Virus record (IMG/VR): IMGVR_UViG_2609459819_000002
Coordinates: 1 to 20,937 of that record
From: a virus
Taxonomy: Duplodnaviria > Heunggongvirae > Uroviricota > Caudoviricetes
Direction: 5' to 3' (one strand)
Length of the DNA: 20,937 bases
Each line of letters starts with the position of its first letter. Position 1 is the stretch's first letter. Made by a program: the position numbers and the translations under genes. Under the pieces are notes generated by a model. It was not told the origin of the DNA. It did no database searches and saw nothing but the letters and a program-made list of their open reading frames with translations. This document shows, piece by piece, positions 581-8,740 of the stretch.

Positions 581-717
581 CGGCGAAGCATCACCAGATT
601 TTTGATGGTTATAAAAAAGGTTCGTTTCGAACAGGAGGAGTAGCGGAGGGCTATGTTGCTTAGTTTGAAAATAGCTGGTCTTGCTGATGCGCATTGATGT
701 AGCAAGACCAGTATGGT

Positions 718-1086
718 TTAAAGTTCCGGGATGACAGGCCAGTTAACATGCTCAGGGTCGGTTGTTACATCAACAGCCTTAACCTGATTCTTATATAAAA
801 GCCACGCCGAAAGTTTAGCTCTGTTGGCATCGCTGATTTCACCCAGCATCAGCTCTGTGCGCCAGTCGAGCATAATTGCATCAGCGGCGGACAGTAATCG
901 CTGTCGCTCATTTTCAGCAGCCTGGATGAGTTGTTCATGAGTCGGTGGGGGATTAATAATTGCCATAGCCTCACTTCTGGTGATTGGCACAAGCCCTTCT
1001 TTGATAAAAGCATCCTGTGTGCCATACGCATCGTAGGCATATACGACGTTATTTTCATCTTTGTAATACTTCATCATTGTTATCAT
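718..1086 (-). CDS. tfa: Tail fibre assembly protein (Tfa family)
   Basis: 122 aa (MITMMKYYKDENNVVYAYD...), with a C-terminal VNWPVIPEL-type ending typical of Tfa chaperones. GGTGGA RBS upstream; start overlaps the stop of the tail-fibre fragment; lies between fibre fragment and invertase. Confidence 0.7.
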   Translation of the reverse strand: MITMMKYYKDENNVVYAYDAYGTQDAFIKEGLVPITRSEAMAIINPPPTHEQLIQAAENERQRLLSAADAIMLDWRTELMLGEISDANRAKLSAWLLYKNQVKAVDVTTDPEHVNWPVIPEL

Positions 1087-1751
1087 TTTTTATCCACCTC
1101 TACCCAGGTAACATCTGACACTGTTCCTGAAAACTGCTGCACAATATAGGTCGCACCGGCAGGAACCATGAATGCGATAGTTGCTCTTTGCCCTGCAAGA
1201 TTTGTTGTCTGAGAGCCGCGAAAATTAGCCGAATTACCATTCACATTAACGTTGGCGCTCAGAAATGAACTACCGTCAGACAGCACCGCATTGACGCTTA
1301 CAAATATGGCGAAAGACTGGCTGTTGGTGTATACGACACCGAGATTTCTAGATTTCATTCCGCATTGACCAAACAACCCTTTCATATCTGAATAGTTTTG
1401 TGATGCAGCAAGTGATGATGCAGCAACACCAGATTCTGTTGATGTTCTGGAATCAGATACGCGGATAATTCCCTTGTTTGTAGTGGTTGCATCATTAGTC
1501 TTGCCTTGCAGAGCTACAATATCCGCATAATTCATCGCTGCCGCTTTTGCTGTTGCAGCAAGCGTTTCAGATTCGGATACCCTTGATGATGTAAGTTGAA
1601 CAATTCCTTTCTGTGTCGTAGTTGAATCCTGAGTTTTGTTTTGCAAAGATTTTATGTCCGTATAGTTTTGCGCGACAGCATTAGCTGTGGCTGCAATATC
1701 CTCTGCACCCGATATCCCCCCACCATCCCATCGGGACGTCGGCGTTGTCAT
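1083..1751 (-). pseudogene. Side tail fibre protein, C-terminal (variable) fragment
   Basis: 222-aa frame with three tandem fibre-like repeats (QNYTDIKSLQNKTQDSTTTQKGIVQLTSS / MNYADIVALQGKTNDATTTNKGIIRVSDS / QNYSDMKG). The frame opens abruptly with no N-terminal anchor domain, right after a baseplate gene fragment. Confidence 0.55.
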
Positions 1752-1862
1752 CAGGCTCCGCCCGCCGCCAAGTGAACAGGGAAATCACCACGGCGCGGGT
1801 CAGCGGATCCAGCGGTGCGCTGGCGCAGGTGCGTTTACCGTTCACCGTCAGCCACAGTTCCA

Positions 1863-2411
1863 TCATGCCTCCATCGCTTTATCAGGTTTGTCGGTGTTAC
1901 TTCCCTGACCGTTCTCTCTGTGACGATGCCCGTTATAGGCAAGCCGCATCGCTGACATGGTGGTGCCGCCGGAGTCGCACAGGTCTTTCACCTGTCCTGT
2001 CACTTCCAGGTCCATTTCAAAACGTGCCTTAGGCGCATTGCGAAACGTGATCGTTTTACCTGCACCGTCCACCACGATCCCCTCCCGGGTCAGCGTCACG
2101 GACTGCCCCTGATCGTCATAGACAGCCACCTCCCCCGTTTGCAGCCCTTTCAGGCGGTAGCGACGGTCCGACACCGTAACAACCACCGCATGAGAACGGT
2201 CGCCATCCGGAAACAACACCACCGCTTCCGCACCGCTGTTTGCCCTTGCGGTAAAACCGTAGGGTTCAAGATGTTCAACCCCGGCTTTGGGTTCACCGGC
2301 AATCAGGGACACATCCACGGTCTGACATTTCGTGGCGGCACTGATGCTTTTCACCACGGCCCGCCCAATCAGGCCGAGGAATTGTCGCTGCATGGCTTCA
2401 ATCGTCCTCAT
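1863..2411 (-). CDS. Baseplate spike / assembly protein (P2 gpV, Mu gp45-like)
   Basis: 182 aa; position and size in a Mu-like tail cluster, with start overlapping the upstream gene stop at 2411. Family assigned by recognition, not search. Confidence 0.6.
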   Translation of the reverse strand: MRTIEAMQRQFLGLIGRAVVKSISAATKCQTVDVSLIAGEPKAGVEHLEPYGFTARANSGAEAVVLFPDGDRSHAVVVTVSDRRYRLKGLQTGEVAVYDDQGQSVTLTREGIVVDGAGKTITFRNAPKARFEMDLEVTGQVKDLCDSGGTTMSAMRLAYNGHRHRENGQGSNTDKPDKAMEA

Positions 2412-3490
2412 CAGAACGGGTCCTCCTGTACTCTGGCTTTTTTCTTTTTCCGCGCGCCGGGGGCTTCGGGTTCAGGCAGATAAGCATCAGGCGGGCCGAC
2501 ACGGATTTCCGTCAGGGTGCCGTTCTGGTCCTGAGTAAACGTGACTTCCGAAACAAGCAGTTCGGTATTGTCGAAACCACAGACCGGATCAAAGACAATC
2601 ACCCGCTGGTTGGGCTGCCACAGCGTACCGTTACCCTGTCGCCAGCCCTGCACCACATAGGTGGTTTCATCCGTCCGCGCCGCCCGTTGTCGGGCTTCAA
2701 AGTCCGCACGGGCAATACAACCTGCCCCCGTAGCCTGCCCTGTCTGCCTGATATACATCGGACGGTAACGGGCAATAAATGCGTCCTCTGTGCGGGCCCG
2801 CAGCGCGGTGGTGGTGGCCTCACCGAAATCATCGTCGTTTCCGGCACGCTGCCCCGCCACCTGGTAAACAGAAAATCGCTCCCGGATACTCTTCTCCGTA
2901 TCGCAGGAAAGGATGTTTTCCCCGAGTACCAGCGCGGTATGTGCCCGCGTTGAGCCAATACCGCCAATCACCAGCCTGCCGTGCGGGTCGTCATAAGCCA
3001 GCGCCTGCTGCTGACCGAGTATTTTGTTAATCACCTCGATCACCGTTTCACCGTGATCAGGCTGGACATCAGGAATAACACCCGACGGCGCACCGCTGTT
3101 CACCACCTCAATGCCGAAGGGCGCAGCAAGCGCCTGCGCAATCTGTACCAGTGATCGTCCGTTAAACTGTGTCGGTTCGGCTGCACAGTCAATCAGGTCA
3201 GCCGTCAGACTACGTCCGGCAATACCGGTGCTGACCGAACGGGCATCGTAACGAACGGGCGTCGCCTCCACCCAGCCGGTGATCACCAGCTCATCACCAA
3301 TCAGCACCTCCACTTTTGAACCGTTTTTAATGCGCGGCTGAAGCGTGGTAATACCCTCATCACCCGGCCACTGGCGGGGGATCTCCACACTGAAATCCCG
3401 CGCCAGCCGTTCAATACCGGCACCGATGCGCACCGATGTCCAGCCATTCCACTCCCGGCCATTTACCCGTAGCGTGACATTGTCGTTCAT
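2411..3490 (-). CDS. Mu gp44 (P)-like baseplate hub / tail protein
   Basis: 359 aa; coupled overlaps at 3487-3490 and 2411; gene order matches Mu N-P-Q. Confidence 0.6.
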   Translation of the reverse strand: MNDNVTLRVNGREWNGWTSVRIGAGIERLARDFSVEIPRQWPGDEGITTLQPRIKNGSKVEVLIGDELVITGWVEATPVRYDARSVSTGIAGRSLTADLIDCAAEPTQFNGRSLVQIAQALAAPFGIEVVNSGAPSGVIPDVQPDHGETVIEVINKILGQQQALAYDDPHGRLVIGGIGSTRAHTALVLGENILSCDTEKSIRERFSVYQVAGQRAGNDDDFGEATTTALRARTEDAFIARYRPMYIRQTGQATGAGCIARADFEARQRAARTDETTYVVQGWRQGNGTLWQPNQRVIVFDPVCGFDNTELLVSEVTFTQDQNGTLTEIRVGPPDAYLPEPEAPGARKKKKARVQEDPF

Positions 3491-4815
3491 TGCACTGGCA
3501 CCTTCAGAGGGATCACCGGCACAAAGCCGGGATGCGTAATGGCATTACGCCGGATAATGTCCGCGTCACGCGCCGCGTTATCAAACCAGGTCGCCGCCAG
3601 CACCAGCGCGGGTAAAACCTCATCCGGTGTGCGCTGAATGATCCGTGCAGACTGTTCAAGGCGCGTGTTGATATCCGCATTCAGATCTGCTTTCACCCGG
3701 CGCAGCGCCAGAAACAGCGCATCGCTGGTTGTACGGGACAACTCCTTATCAATTGCCGTATTCAGTGTGTCGCGAATGTCAGTCAGTTCTTCCCACGTCG
3801 GCAGGTCAACCGTGTTTTTCACCGCCGGTGCATTGTTCAGTGCCGGATGCGTGACGGAAGGCCAGCCAGTGCTCTGCGCGGGTGTTGTTGCCTGCCCCAC
3901 TGTGGCATTCTGCATCACCGCGGAAGTTGTTGGCGCAGGCAATCGGATGACGGCATACGCCGCTTCGCTGATTGCGGTCGTACGAAGGGTGCTGGCAACC
4001 ACGTTACGCTGCTGCGTCGCCGTGGCGGTGGTTTTACTGTCCGTTTTCCAGACGCCGCGCGGTTGCAGATCGCTGCCGAGGCTGACACCGGAAAGCGTTT
4101 TGATCATGGTGACCAGGTCGCTGGCGTTACCATAAAGGCGTTTCCCGGTACGCCACATTTTCTGCACCTGCTCAACGAAATTTTTGCCTGACGATGGCGG
4201 CGGCAGAAGTACCGAGATATCACCCTGCAACAGCCTGGCGGCATCCGATACGGCAGAATCCACCACTTTCATCGCATCAGAAACATACCCAAGCATTGTG
4301 CTGGCATTACCGATAACGTCGTTCTGCACAAAATCCGCCACGCCATCGATACTGAAACCGCTGAAGCTGTCACTGATGCAGTCATCCAGTGCAGAACAGG
4401 ATGACATCAGCGTCTGCGCCGTCGCCACGCCTGATGTGGGGTAAGAGAGATCTCCCGCTTCGACAAACTTCAGGTCAAAGCGGACAATACGCCCTTCACT
4501 CTTCGATGTGCTGACCCGAACTTCCCCGTCAACACAGACTTTCAACTCACCGTATGTCGGGTGGACAAGCGTGCCGGGACCGGGTTTATTCAGCGCGTCA
4601 ATCAGGCGATCGCGCTGGTCAAAGCAGTCATCTCCCACCACATAAGCCGTGATGGACGGGCGGAAAGTGACTTTTCCCAGATCTTCGGTATAGGTTTTGT
4701 CGCGGTTCGGATATTCGTGTGTTTCCACACGACGGCCGGTTCCCGCACTTTCTTCTTCAACCTTAAACGGCACACCTCGAAATGACGCATCCTGAAGCCT
4801 GTCTTTCCACGTCAT
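3487..4815 (-). CDS. Mu gp43 (N)-like DNA circulation / tail protein
   Basis: 442 aa from ATG at 4813-4815 (MTWKDRLQDASFRGVPF...), GGAG RBS 5 nt upstream. The track start at 4821 is a GTG two codons further up. Confidence 0.65.
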   Translation of the reverse strand: MTWKDRLQDASFRGVPFKVEEESAGTGRRVETHEYPNRDKTYTEDLGKVTFRPSITAYVVGDDCFDQRDRLIDALNKPGPGTLVHPTYGELKVCVDGEVRVSTSKSEGRIVRFDLKFVEAGDLSYPTSGVATAQTLMSSCSALDDCISDSFSGFSIDGVADFVQNDVIGNASTMLGYVSDAMKVVDSAVSDAARLLQGDISVLLPPPSSGKNFVEQVQKMWRTGKRLYGNASDLVTMIKTLSGVSLGSDLQPRGVWKTDSKTTATATQQRNVVASTLRTTAISEAAYAVIRLPAPTTSAVMQNATVGQATTPAQSTGWPSVTHPALNNAPAVKNTVDLPTWEELTDIRDTLNTAIDKELSRTTSDALFLALRRVKADLNADINTRLEQSARIIQRTPDEVLPALVLAATWFDNAARDADIIRRNAITHPGFVPVIPLKVPVQ

Positions 4816-4825
4816 ATACACTCCG

Positions 4826-4856
4826 AAAATAAAAAAGCCACCTATTAGAAGGTGGC
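4826..4856 (-). terminator. Rho-independent terminator after the tail-operon moron
   Basis: On the minus strand: GCCACC-ttctaata-GGTGGC stem-loop followed by TTTTTTATTTT. Lies between the moron stop (4877) and the RBS of the next tail gene. Confidence 0.5.
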
Positions 4857-4876
4857 CTTGTAATGAATTTTATTAA

Positions 4877-5407
4877 TTAGCGAGTCAGAAACAACGAATC
4901 TTTATACTTTTGCTGTTGTTCATTTAAATACTTAGCTGTTTCATCGCTGGCAAATGGAAATATTACCGTATTTTTAGGCATGGTAATTTCTTTTTTGTCC
5001 AGCGTCAGAGTAAACATAGGAACATACTGAGCAGAGTAACGCACCGCAGAAACGAGCTCTAGTTTAGACTCTTCAATAACACTTAAATTATCCAGGCTAA
5101 CTTTCTCTTCATCTTTTTTCTTTGACGCATTTAAAGTTTTTATTACTTTATTTAATTTCTCCTGAAAATCCTCCTTAAAGTTTTCAGGATTGCCGTCGAC
5201 AACAAGAATCTGTTCACCCTGATTATCTGGAAAAATAATCTTTGCACTTATCAATTTATTTTCTTTATAAACATCACCAAGTTTTATGGCTCCTCCAGAT
5301 AACTGAATAATATGTTCATCTTTAAAGGAGATGTTGCCAGAGATTATGAGAGATGAAAAAACAGCCGCTGCTCCAAGAATTACACTTGCTGTGATATAGC
5401 CTTTCAT
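4877..5407 (-). CDS. Hypothetical signal-anchored or secreted protein (AT-rich moron in the tail operon)
   Basis: 176 aa; hydrophobic N-terminus (MKGYITASVILGAAAVFSSLIISG) followed by a K/E-rich soluble part. Markedly AT-rich compared with the flanking tail genes; has its own candidate promoter and a terminator. Confidence 0.6.
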   Translation of the reverse strand: MKGYITASVILGAAAVFSSLIISGNISFKDEHIIQLSGGAIKLGDVYKENKLISAKIIFPDNQGEQILVVDGNPENFKEDFQEKLNKVIKTLNASKKKDEEKVSLDNLSVIEESKLELVSAVRYSAQYVPMFTLTLDKKEITMPKNTVIFPFASDETAKYLNEQQQKYKDSLFLTR

Positions 5408-5442
5408 TTTTCGCCTATTAACATTTTTCTAAATGTGCATTA

Positions 5443-5470
5443 ATTCTATCACTCTATTTATGACTTACAA
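5443..5470 (-). promoter_or_regulatory. Candidate sigma70 promoter for the tail-operon moron
   Basis: Minus strand TTGTAA (-35), 16-nt spacer, TAGAAT (-10), about 35 nt upstream of the moron ATG. By eye only. Confidence 0.25.
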
Positions 5471-5498
5471 CCAGCAATACCTGTGAGGGGAATCCTGG

Positions 5499-7331
5499 CT
5501 ACCAAAATCGGGTATAGCCAACATCGTGATTTATATCAATGCCACTGGAGCGTGTTTCCGTAACCCGCATACCTGGTGGCATATTTATAAATGATACCTT
5601 GATCTCACCATCAACTTTTGGCGCAGAAGCTTTGTTAATCATGAAGGGATTCGGGCCTGTGGCATCGGAGGCGTTGTTTGACTGAGCCAGATCTACCGCC
5701 GGATAAGGTGTGTATCCCCGCGCCGGTATTCCCGTCCCATAAGCATCATAAGCACTCGCGCCCCACTGCGCAGAGTTAATGGCATCGACCGTGTCACCGG
5801 AACTGTCGGTAAACCACTCAATAATTGGCTTCAGCTTATCCCACATATCCTGAAACCACTTAACAACCGGTCCCCAGTTATTGATCACCATCCCCAGCGG
5901 CGACCAGGCAAAAACCTTCTTCAGAAGTTCCCAGCCAGCCTCAAAATAAGGACCAATGGTTTCCCAGAGCTTCTTAAAATAAGGTCCGACAACATCCCAG
6001 TTAGTGATAATTAATCCCGCAGCCAGAGCAATCGCCGTCGCAATCATGCCAATCGGCGTCATCGACATAATCCTGCTGACAATACTGATGGCACTGCCCA
6101 CGCCCATCAATCCCAGTTTCAGAATCGCAAGACCGGCAGCAAGCCCGACGACGCCGCGAATAACCCGGGGATTTTCATCCGCAAACTTCGTGAATTTCTC
6201 CCCCAACTCCCCCAGCCACTGCGTGATATTTTTGGCGTCACCAGAAAATGCGCCGCCAATAGCTGCAAGACCGTTAGTTGCGGTCCCCGTCATTGCCTCC
6301 CACAGGTTGGACAGCGTACCAAGCTGAGCCTGAACACGTTTATTCAGGCTGGCCTGTTTATTCATCTTCTGCTGGATCTGATCGTAGCCATCCTTTCCTT
6401 TATCGATTAGTGCATTGACCACCTGAAGGGTTTCGGCATCATCACCAAATATTGCCTTAAGTACGCCTGTTCGCTTAACGTCGGTCAGTTTTCGCAGCTT
6501 TGCCAGTTGCCTGAACATGTTATCAAGACCGCCAAAACTCCCTTTGCCGTCAGTAAAATCGAGCTGTACCCCGAGTTTCTGGCGGGCCATGATTTTATTG
6601 ACGTCCCTGATTTTCTTAACGCTTAATCCGGACTGGATAACTTTTCGCAGGGCGTTACCTGCCGACTCCCCGTTCATCCCCATCTGATCCATCATGACGC
6701 TGATGGGGGCAAGGCTCTGTGCAGCCTGAAGACCGTCCTTGTTCACCATCTTCAGAACAGAGCTGGTTTTAGTGAAGAAGGACAACATGTTGGTATCGTC
6801 AACGCCCAGATAAAACGCCTTCTGGATAGTGTCGAACAGCCCCATCATGTCTTCTGACGCCGTTCCGGTAGCATCCTGCATCTTTGCGGCAAACTCGGCA
6901 GCCGCTTCCGGTGTTTTTTTCAGTTGTACCGCAAGATAAGCTGTCGCTTTACCCACACCGCCAAGAATGTTTTCTGCCGGGATCCCCTGACGCACCAGCA
7001 TCTGCATCATGTTCTGGAAATCAGCCGTTGTACCGGGTAGCTGATTACCCAGGCCAATAGCCAGTTTATTGATGTCCTGAAAGCTCTTTCCAACCTCGCC
7101 GTTCGCATCCATCATGGCGACTTTCAGCCCGGTGGCGGCGTTTTCCTGATCGGCATAAGATTTCAGGGAAAGCGTCAGACCCGCTGCCAGTCCGCCACCA
7201 AGCGCTAGCCCACCCTGTGACGCTTCTTCCGCCTGGCGTTTAAATCCCCGGATTTTCTTTTGCATTTTCGACAGCGCGGGAGAAAGCCTGTCGACACCGG
7301 TGATCAACGCCTTAAGCTCAAATTCCGCCAT
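5499..7331 (-). CDS. Tail tape measure protein
   Basis: 610 aa; Gly/Ala-rich and hydrophobic central segments and a Trp-rich C-terminal part (WDVVGPYFKKLWETIGPYFEAGWELLKKVFAWSPLG). Positioned after chaperone-like ORFs and before baseplate genes. Confidence 0.8.
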   Translation of the reverse strand: MAEFELKALITGVDRLSPALSKMQKKIRGFKRQAEEASQGGLALGGGLAAGLTLSLKSYADQENAATGLKVAMMDANGEVGKSFQDINKLAIGLGNQLPGTTADFQNMMQMLVRQGIPAENILGGVGKATAYLAVQLKKTPEAAAEFAAKMQDATGTASEDMMGLFDTIQKAFYLGVDDTNMLSFFTKTSSVLKMVNKDGLQAAQSLAPISVMMDQMGMNGESAGNALRKVIQSGLSVKKIRDVNKIMARQKLGVQLDFTDGKGSFGGLDNMFRQLAKLRKLTDVKRTGVLKAIFGDDAETLQVVNALIDKGKDGYDQIQQKMNKQASLNKRVQAQLGTLSNLWEAMTGTATNGLAAIGGAFSGDAKNITQWLGELGEKFTKFADENPRVIRGVVGLAAGLAILKLGLMGVGSAISIVSRIMSMTPIGMIATAIALAAGLIITNWDVVGPYFKKLWETIGPYFEAGWELLKKVFAWSPLGMVINNWGPVVKWFQDMWDKLKPIIEWFTDSSGDTVDAINSAQWGASAYDAYGTGIPARGYTPYPAVDLAQSNNASDATGPNPFMINKASAPKVDGEIKVSFINMPPGMRVTETRSSGIDINHDVGYTRFW

Positions 7332-7506: not shown

Positions 7507-7679
7507 GCCGCTGCATTCAGGTCTGCCGGAGACATCTGGTCGACAGAGCTTTGCGGCACTTTCGCCAGCCGCACAATGTATTTCGACACCACATGCGCCA
7601 GAAGTCTGACGGACTCATCCTGATTCATCTGGTAGGGATAGCTCCAGCGACCGCTGGTATCGTTCATCTCTGTCACCAT
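7473..7679 (-). CDS. Tail assembly chaperone (G-like), possibly N-terminally truncated
   Basis: 68-aa ORF immediately upstream of the tape measure gene, containing an in-frame slippery heptamer near its 3' end. Confidence 0.4.
7485..7491 (-). other. Candidate -1 programmed frameshift slippery heptamer (T_TTT_TTC)
   Basis: On the minus strand GGT TTT TTC is in the zero frame of the 7473..7679 ORF, 12 nt before its stop; the -1 frame continues into 7318..7506. Confidence 0.35.
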
Positions 7680-8241
7680 CCTCCGGACGGTTCATGTTTG
7701 AGGCGTTAACCTCAATCCCGAACGCTTCCGTCAGCATGGGTGTGCGTTTACACATCAGTCTTGCCGGACGAAAGACTTCCCATGCCTGTTTCTCCGTCGT
7801 GGCACCGGAATACACTTCCGCGCCGAACTCGTTATCACAGGCAAAACAATACAGGGCGACACCGGCAGAGATTGCCGATTTGCCGTTCTTACGGGGGATT
7901 TCGGTATACACCTCACGGAAGCGGCGCAGCCGGGAGCCTTTATTGACCCAGCCAAACGCGCAGCAGATCACAAAGAGCTGCCACGGCTCCAGCGTGATGG
8001 GCATCCTCTTGAATGCCCACTCACCCTTGGTGTGCGGCAACAGCTGAATAAATTTGGCGGCCCGTTCAGCCAGATCCTTGTCGAAGCGGTAACGAAACGA
8101 CTTACTTTTTTCCGCCATCAGGTCATCAAGATGGCGCTGGCAGGCCTGAATCACAAACTGGCAGGCCACAATCTTTCCGCGCACGACATCCCGGGCATAC
8201 TGATTGGCAGCATTTACGTTGGGGTAAGATTTCCGGCTCAT
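7615..8241 (-). pseudogene. Terminase large subunit, N-terminal fragment (truncated by deletion)
   Basis: Only 208 codons; Walker A-like PRKNGKS present. The frame ends in a non-terminase-looking tail and is followed within 1 kb by the tape measure gene; portal, protease, capsid, sheath and tube genes are absent. Confidence 0.7.
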
Positions 8242-8254
8242 GATTCGATGATTT

Positions 8255-8740
8255 TCAGATTGTCAGAAACGGGTTAGTGGCTTTCTTCTTCCCCGCCAGG
8301 CCAATCAGACGCTGGCGGCTGCTGGGGTCGAGTCCGAGCATTGCCCCCGTGCTGCTCATCTCGGACTCCTGTTCTTTTTTGGCGGTCAGCTCCGGATTTT
8401 TGACCATGCCGCCCATTGCACCGGTGATGGTGTTACCCTGTCTGGCAATATTTTTCACGGCACGTCGCCAGAACTCATAGGCCACACACCACCGCTCAAG
8501 TACCGCCAGGTCAGTCACGCACAGCAGGCCCTGACCGCAGAGTTCTTTGGTTGTCAGTTGCCACATGATCGTGGCGAGAGGGAGATCTTCTTCAGCGAAC
8601 CACTCCGGTGGCTCAACACCTTTGATGGGTGTAAAAACAGGTTCATCTTTATTCAGGGCTCGCTTGCCGGGGTTTCCGGCCAGCGCCTTGCGCGCCGTTG
8701 GCTTGGGGCGACGCCCGGAACGCCCCGCCGTTCCAGCCAT
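8255..8740 (-). CDS. Terminase small subunit (P27 family)
   Basis: 161 aa from ATG at 8738-8740 ([18 protein letters not shown]...), AGGAG RBS upstream. The track start at 8749 is a GTG. Confidence 0.8.

Follow-up and report, generated by a model that had tools for sequence, protein, structure and literature searches.

An optional AT-rich cassette for a predicted envelope protein at the tape measure/DNA-circularization junction of SfV-type prophages

Introduction

Morons of tail operons are a recognised source of the phage resistance and host-fitness traits that prophages confer, and few of them have assigned functions. Among the phage products that act against superinfection, T5 Llp, Cor (phi80, N15, HK022), and Ltp (TP-J34) are small, lipid-anchored envelope lipoproteins that mask receptors. 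A moron, in the sense of Juhala and Hendrix, is extra DNA present in some and absent from other closely related phage genomes (PMC3594210). HK97 gp15 is the product of a moron that adjoins the tape measure gene: a small inner-membrane protein, related to YebO and expressed from the prophage, that blocks DNA entry in a manner dependent on the tail region of the superinfecting phage (Cumby et al., 2012; PMC3594210).

Here we analyze a cassette in a 20,937-nt stretch of Caudoviricetes DNA (the whole of it is referred to as the window). The cassette occupies positions 4822–5498, which is the exact gap between two minus-strand tail genes, and contains a single ORF of 176 codons. Like the gene of HK97 gp15, it is an optional tail-operon cassette of deviant composition that adjoins the tape measure gene, has its own terminator, and encodes a protein with an N-terminal membrane segment. 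Unlike gp15, with which it has no detectable sequence relationship and no PHROG or Pfam family in common, the 176-aa protein carries a predicted folded periplasmic alpha/beta domain of ~145 residues; the gp15 gene is located upstream of the tape measure gene of a siphovirus, whereas the 176-aa gene is located downstream of it in a phage with a Mu-type contractile tail. The protein resembles Llp, Cor, and Ltp in that its sole significant structural match, a phage protein, is annotated as a lipoprotein, but it has neither a lipobox nor a single Cys, shows no sequence similarity to these proteins, and is predicted to be anchored by a transmembrane helix instead of lipid.

Results

Prophage and flanking genes

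In its tail module, the window matches the Shigella/E. coli phages SfV, SfI, and SfII, with 96% nucleotide identity. Intact E. coli relatives of this prophage combine an HK97-type head and a Mu-type contractile tail with an annotated Q-type antiterminator and lambdoid lysis genes. The prophage of the window itself is decayed: a deletion of ~8.6 kb has brought together what is left of the tail-assembly-chaperone gene, a 41-bp piece of the sheath gene, and the 5'-most ~190 codons of the gene for the large terminase, while at a second break gp46 is truncated and the genes of gp47 and gp48 are gone. The cassette is intact here, as it is in an independently deleted prophage of E. coli O155 strain NWU_3; its retention in decayed prophages could be due to chance. 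The features of the cassette and of its neighbors are listed in Table 1.

Table 1. Features of the cassette and the flanking tail genes, with positions in the window
Feature	Position	Strand	Remarks
DNA-circularization gene, Mu N / gp43 type (right boundary)	3487..4821	-	PF07157; homology between slot alleles resumes at its RBS
Intrinsic terminator	4824..4859	-	10-bp GC-containing stem, 6-nt loop, T-run; free energy -15.6 kcal/mol
CDS, 176 aa, ATG start	4877..5407	-	WP_000679481.1, annotated 'hypothetical protein'; PHROG 5485
N-terminal hydrophobic segment, codons 5-23	5339..5395	-	Kyte-Doolittle 19-mer mean 2.09
Shine-Dalgarno-like AGGCG, 5' of the ATG	5412..5416	-	read from the sequence
Promoter-like TTGTAA-16-TAGAAT, TG extended -10	5443..5470	-	36 nt 5' of the ATG; 9/12 consensus match
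Tape measure gene (left boundary)	5499..7331	-	PF10145; homology between slot alleles stops at its stop codon

The ORF and its predicted product

An earlier note on this DNA had described an ORF of 176 aa with one hydrophobic N-terminal segment and a Lys/Glu-rich body, flanked by tape measure and Mu N-like genes, and all of this is borne out, the neighbors being identified by their Pfam matches (PF10145 and PF07157). The hydrophobic residues at positions 5–23 of the protein are ITASVILGAAAVFSSLIIS. The 148 residues beyond the segment are rich in Lys, Glu, and Asp (20 K, 14 E, 10 D); their calculated pI is 5.6, and they contain no Trp; Cys is absent from the whole protein, and hence there is no lipobox Cys. 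From hydropathy and charge, a signal-anchor is predicted, which would keep the N-terminus inside and place the body of the protein in the periplasm; a Sec signal, cleaved or uncleaved, could be present instead.

The GC content of the ORF is 0.345 overall and 0.30 at third codon positions, compared with 0.515 in the tape measure gene and 0.561 in the DNA-circularization gene, in agreement with the compositional contrast that had been noted before. Orthologue pairs yield dN/dS of 0.08 (dS 1.07) and 0.13 (dS 0.07). The gene is real, protein-coding, and under purifying selection; a spurious ORF was considered and rejected, given this dN/dS range (0.08–0.13) and a family of 77 clusters.

The AlphaFold model, built with 22 sequences, has a mean pLDDT of 75, with values of ~70–90 for residues 30–176 and <50 for residues 1–29. 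The predicted fold consists of four beta-strands, a long helix, a beta-hairpin, and a long C-terminal helix. A sequence-profile search of the PDB with the 176-aa protein produced nothing below E = 0.18, and Foldseek against BFVD produced one significant match, A0A2H4P829 (E = 2.7e-6, TM-score 0.55/0.64), which is a 144-aa uncharacterised protein of Pseudomonas phage ventosus annotated as 'lipoprotein'. The modeled fold is thus a hint compatible with an envelope location and gives no mechanism; the sequence and fold searches taken together (Pfam, NCBIfam, PADLOC, PDB profile, Foldseek against BFVD) assign no function to the protein.

Promoter-like site and terminator

The earlier note had also credited the gene with a plausible promoter of its own and with a terminator directly in front of the next RBS, and each of these claims stands in part. 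The promoter-like sequence is indeed present, in the 91-bp spacer that follows the tape measure stop codon. However, a scan of positions 4500–5900 reveals one site, while 2.6 are expected in shuffles; hence, the match is no better than chance and carries no statistical weight by itself. It is also only partly conserved: at the aligned position, orthologous cassettes keep TTGnnA-like hexamers, while the -10 element varies. A promoter of the 176-aa gene is therefore plausible by position only.

The terminator is present as described: its stem, at 4859..4834 of the minus strand, is followed by UUUUUUAUUUU, and the element ends directly 5' of the GGAG RBS of the DNA-circularization gene; the hairpin is more stable than dinucleotide shuffles of the same sequence (z = -4.7). 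It is not, however, specific to the cassette. Each same-strand allele of the slot, the empty one included, has its own, different hairpin with a T-run, and the SfII record annotates a rho-independent terminator at the empty junction; hence, the terminator is a trait of the phage group and not of the 176-aa cassette alone. In an Rfam scan of positions 4600–5700, the terminator hairpin gave leader-like matches below threshold, and nothing else was found.

Polymorphism of the junction and alternative cargoes

Of 5,426 complete E. coli genomes, ~1,093 contain the tape-measure/DNA-circularization junction, and only ~172 of the junction-bearing genomes carry the 176-aa gene, at 97–100% identity; the encoded protein shows 99–100% conservation across the ~172 genomes and 80 IMG/VR contigs. 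The empty allele, a 60-bp spacer, is seen in many junction-bearing E. coli genomes, and the slot is likewise empty in the cultured phages SfV, SfI, and SfII. Tail modules with and without the cassette are otherwise 94–99% identical, and allele alignments confine the variable region exactly to the stretch that begins at the stop codon of the tape measure gene and ends at the RBS of the DNA-circularization gene. The 176-aa gene is a genuine optional cassette, dispensable for virions, and the description of the region as a self-contained AT-rich moron is upheld by the presence/absence pattern and by the exact slot boundaries. Presence or absence among close phages, deviant composition, and a terminator are all observed, although the empty allele, too, has a hairpin. 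The anatomy of the cassette is that of a textbook moron, and very probably this moron encodes an envelope protein.

The slot is polymorphic across roughly one in five complete E. coli genomes, and its most frequent cargo is the 176-aa gene (Table 2). All four cargoes are envelope-targeted, and all have low GC content (0.31–0.42). The idea that the alternative cargoes descend from a single gene as divergent alleles was rejected: comparison of the 176-aa family with the two other same-strand cargoes by hhalign gives a probability of <1%, and the OB-fold cargo matches different Pfam and PHROG families. The alternative cargoes, notably the OB-fold protein, share with the 176-aa cassette exactly the same junction in 94–99% identical prophages, a low GC content, a comparably small size, and a signal for export or membrane insertion at the N-terminus. 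They differ from it in their unrelated sequences, and the OB-fold gene also in lying on the opposite strand.

Table 2. Cargoes of the junction slot in complete E. coli genomes
Cargo	Envelope-targeting feature	Strand relative to tail genes	Number of genomes
176-aa protein	N-terminal hydrophobic segment	same	~172
164-aa protein	Sec-type signal	same	84
148-aa OB-fold protein, PF12869 (tRNA_anti-like)	N-terminal membrane helix	opposite	70
225-aa lipoprotein	LLGGC lipobox	same	54

The PHROG family matched by the OB-fold cargo (PHROG 8545, E = 1.5e-49) bears the label 'superinfection exclusion Sie-like', which is a database annotation and for which a literature search found no experimental basis; a literature search for exclusion genes at the tape-measure/DNA-circularization junction found nothing. 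The 'Sie-like' label attaches to the OB-fold cargo, which is unrelated to the 176-aa family. The pointers to the superinfection-exclusion or surface-modifying role suggested in the earlier note are indirect: the predicted envelope topology, the envelope-targeted alternative cargoes, and this one PHROG label.

The family and its genomic contexts

The 176-aa protein matches PHROG 5485, an uncharacterised family of ~175-aa proteins, over its full length (E = 4e-108), and its strong PHROG matches are only to families without an assigned function. Scans of the protein and of its distant relatives against Pfam, NCBIfam, and PADLOC gave no match. The earlier note had recognised no family for the protein, and the results agree, PHROG 5485 itself having no assigned function. 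Neither homology to any characterised exclusion protein nor membership in a characterised superinfection exclusion family of the HK97 gp15 or P22 SieA type was found with Pfam, NCBIfam, PADLOC, and PHROG; the family is outside any characterised exclusion family. A tblastn search of 50,697 deposited phage genomes with the 176-aa protein and a Pseudomonas relative gave no match, and in a literature search WP_000679481.1 was mentioned in no paper.

A word-indexed search retrieves only the E. coli copies (99%) and copies of 52–59% identity, the named ones of which are from Leclercia and Lelliottia. An exhaustive HMMER profile search of 1.84 billion representatives yields 77 clusters, the full-length members of which are nearly all 170–200 aa long. 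The family shares the N-terminal hydrophobic segment, the motif G-x-V-x-L-G-x-V-Y-x-E, and the invariant residues Tyr124 and Leu134. An n-region with 1–2 Lys/Arg followed by an uncharged stretch, mostly of 21–28 residues, is present in 36/36 aligned members, and some distant relatives have a lipobox-like Cys inside the hydrophobic segment.

Family members occupy the same slot in Leclercia-type prophages and in Edwardsiella anguillarum (41% identity). Elsewhere, one relative is found directly 3' of the Q antiterminator gene of a lambdoid prophage, beside kinase and phosphatase morons; another lies inside the baseplate cluster of an E217/Pam3-type myophage, where its GC content is 0.33 vs. 0.50–0.52 and it has its own terminator. 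The latter gene begins inside the upstream tail gene, with an overlap of 4 nt, and this suggests co-transcription with the late operon rather than lysogen-specific expression in that context. Further relatives adjoin resolvase genes in small integrative islands of Pseudomonas; a neighboring 180-aa gene in these islands was considered as a paralogue and rejected (hhalign probability <1%). In Lelliottia amnigena, a lone intact copy adjoins icd, the attachment locus of e14-type prophages; around it, only the terminator and the last ~190 nt of the tape measure gene are left. By the earlier note's own standard, its reading would fall if homologues proved to be conserved structural tail components; they do not, as the viable phages SfV, SfI, and SfII are without the gene and relatives occur in accessory positions outside tail modules.

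Age and composition of the cassette

When E. coli phages are compared with four Leclercia-type phages, identity of the tape measure protein is 75–77% for three of them and 35% for the remaining one; it is 67–70% for the DNA-circularization protein and 52–59% for the cargo. The 176-aa gene is thus an old resident of the slot that evolves faster than the tail proteins. Enterobacterial orthologues have GC content of 0.35–0.375, and synonymous sites are saturated between most pairs; since GC is low despite this saturation, AT-richness is maintained and is not merely the trace of a recent transfer. To describe the cassette as recently inserted would be too simple: the slot has been held since the phages of E. 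coli, Leclercia, and Edwardsiella diverged to 41–59% identity, and the gene is AT-rich throughout.

Discussion

We tentatively propose, as the most likely of the explanations considered although with a probability somewhat below even, that the 176-aa protein is made by the lysogen and excludes superinfecting phages at the envelope; HK97 gp15 is a precedent. The product would be a small bitopic protein, held in the inner membrane by its single N-terminal helix, with the alpha/beta domain of ~145 residues facing the periplasm. In the lysogen it would be expressed from its own weak promoter or by read-through. It would stop a superinfecting phage after adsorption, at the stage when the tail tip and the tape measure protein cross the periplasm and open the inner membrane, the mode of exclusion being that of HK97 gp15. 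The terminator 3' of the gene would insulate the cassette in the lysogen, while during lytic growth Q-antiterminated late transcription would pass it. Reading through terminators by Q-modified polymerase is established lambdoid biology.

If the family does exclude phages, it would supply a resistance determinant that has so far gone unrecognised and that bears on phage therapy and on the phage typing of E. coli and Shigella; a new exclusion family would thereby be defined, and the slot would become an easily recognisable hot spot for mining envelope-acting exclusion genes. A broader version of the proposal is rather doubtful: PHROG 5485 would be a new, widespread exclusion family, the periplasmic domain of which intercepts the tape measure protein or the tail tip of contractile-tailed phages; the junction would be a dedicated hot spot exchanging unrelated envelope-targeted exclusion proteins; and host domestication might follow prophage decay, e.g., in the Lelliottia icd relic. 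If exclusion is not the function, the gene would be an ordinary uncharacterised lysogenic-conversion gene. The more interesting by-product of the analysis is the slot itself, a hot spot that swaps unrelated envelope-targeted genes.

An envelope factor of lysogenic conversion, unrelated to phage exclusion, is somewhat unlikely. It might shield the periplasm or serve there as an 'orphan immunity' protein, the target being colicins or the effectors of T6SS or tailocins, or else, in the manner of morons of the Bor/Lom type, alter envelope stress tolerance or colonisation fitness; however, there is no similarity to known immunity, serum-resistance, or adhesin families, and the family is tightly associated with the tail operons of three tail types, which a purely host-directed role does not predict. 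Location of the gene on the same strand inside the late operon, where antiterminated late transcription would cover it, is also compatible with an accessory protein that is expressed late, serves the lytic cycle of the phage itself, and acts in the envelope of the dying cell, e.g., masks receptors against the loss of progeny on debris (as in the logic of T5 Llp), blocks lysis from without, or tunes lysis. The Q-type antiterminator annotated in intact relatives, the overlapping start in the E217-type phage, where no intergenic space is left for a promoter, and the weak promoter evidence in the window all agree with this role. At the same time, the copies in Pseudomonas islands, the copy 3' of Q, and the Lelliottia relic are outside late tail operons, and a strong terminator combined with separate AT-rich composition is among the classic signs of a lysogen-expressed moron (PMC3594210); on balance, we consider a lytic accessory quite improbable.

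A structural or assembly component of the tail, e.g., a membrane-interacting tail-tip or ejection protein, would explain the position of the gene between the tape measure and baseplate-hub genes, which is kept in prophages of E. coli, Leclercia, and Edwardsiella, and the relative within the baseplate cluster of another myophage. Yet the presence/absence data largely refute this role, and its probability is very low: the gene is absent from the cultured phages SfV, SfI, and SfII, the tail modules of which are 96% identical to that of the window, and many E. coli prophages of the SfV type have an empty slot or an unrelated cargo in its place; moreover, relatives are found outside tail operons, and the composition of the gene is foreign to the operon in which it resides.

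Deletions in the Prophage and Its Relatives

The SfV-type prophage in the window is defective: about 8.6 kb have been deleted, and it lacks the genes for portal, protease, capsid, connector, sheath, and tube. The deletion has brought together a truncated gene for the tail-assembly chaperone, 41 bp of sheath gene sequence, and the large terminase gene's first ~190 codons. This exact junction was found in none of the complete E. coli genomes of the collection. At a second break, homology with intact prophages stops inside gp46, at ~1713; the baseplate J/gp47 and gp48 genes are absent here, and a tail-fibre gene (1083–1751) follows the break in gp46 directly.

Separate deletions are seen in E. 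coli FT130 and E. coli O155 NWU_3 (loci L102 and L103, respectively), where an over-long "tape measure" ORF, apparently a terminase::tape-measure fusion, directly abuts the small terminase gene. Both strains have kept the cargo of the slot between the tape measure and DNA-circularization genes: FT130 has the OB-fold gene, and NWU_3 has the 176-aa gene. The head and tail-shaft block is lost recurrently, in a way that looks non-random.

An intact, lone family member is observed in Lelliottia amnigena (locus L006). It is flanked only by ~190 nt of the 3' end of the tape measure gene and by the cassette terminator, with no further phage genes within 8 kb, which suggests a remnant, now domesticated, of an e14/SfV-type prophage.

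Coordinates of the described features in the window and in compared loci
Feature	Locus	Position	Strand	Remark
~8.6 kb deletion	window	7600–8241		junction ~7638–7678
Second break of the prophage	window	1083–1866		
DUF3800 protein	window	11522–12325	+	
234-aa ORF	window	13007–13711	+	no assignment
BD-FAE/alpha-beta hydrolase	window	15085–16128	+	
Over-long "tape measure" ORF	L102 (E. coli FT130)	4500–6983		2,484 bp vs 1,833 bp
Over-long "tape measure" ORF	L103 (E. coli O155 NWU_3)	4500–6668		2,169 bp vs 1,833 bp
Intact lone family member	L006 (Lelliottia amnigena)	7810–8581		adjoins icd
GC hairpin and T-run	L008 (empty slot)	717–776		
GC hairpin and T-run	L104 (phage SfII, empty slot)	1439–1477		
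Family member	L106 (metagenomic E217/Pam3-type myophage)	8001–8513		0.33 GC

Terminators and Insertion Context

The "empty" allele of the slot also carries a GC hairpin with a T-run, placed downstream of the tape measure stop codon and ahead of the next gene's ribosome-binding site, and annotated as a rho-independent terminator in the SfII record; therefore, the mid-tail-operon terminator is general to SfV-type phages. In the E217/Pam3-type myophage, whose contractile tail is unrelated to the SfV type, the family member is wedged between a baseplate gene and the sheath-initiator gene; there is a 4-nt overlap between its start and the upstream gene, and the next gene is immediately preceded by a terminator.

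Base Composition and Possible Lipid Anchoring

All enterobacterial orthologues of the 176-aa gene (window 4877–5407; L002, L007, L101, and L006) have a GC content of 0.35–0.375, and of 0.29–0.37 at third codon positions. Since the GC content stays low even though, for most pairs of these orthologues, synonymous substitutions have reached saturation, the AT-richness is being maintained, one possible reason being H-NS-dependent regulation.

Some distant members of the family (e.g., P0032, P0035, P0037, and P0050 in alignment A2) carry, within the hydrophobic segment, a Cys residue in a lipobox-like setting (V/L-G-G/A-C), and the sole significant fold match of the 176-aa protein bears a lipoprotein annotation. 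Some of the family may be lipid-anchored.

Other Regions of the Window

Two further regions, 9300–9900 and 11500–17000, are of note. An AT-rich stretch (0.38–0.44 GC) follows the HNH gene, and the interval from the lysis genes to the integrase gene (18316–19479) holds cargo-like plus-strand genes, namely those for the DUF3800 protein and the BD-FAE/alpha-beta hydrolase and the unassigned 234-aa ORF.
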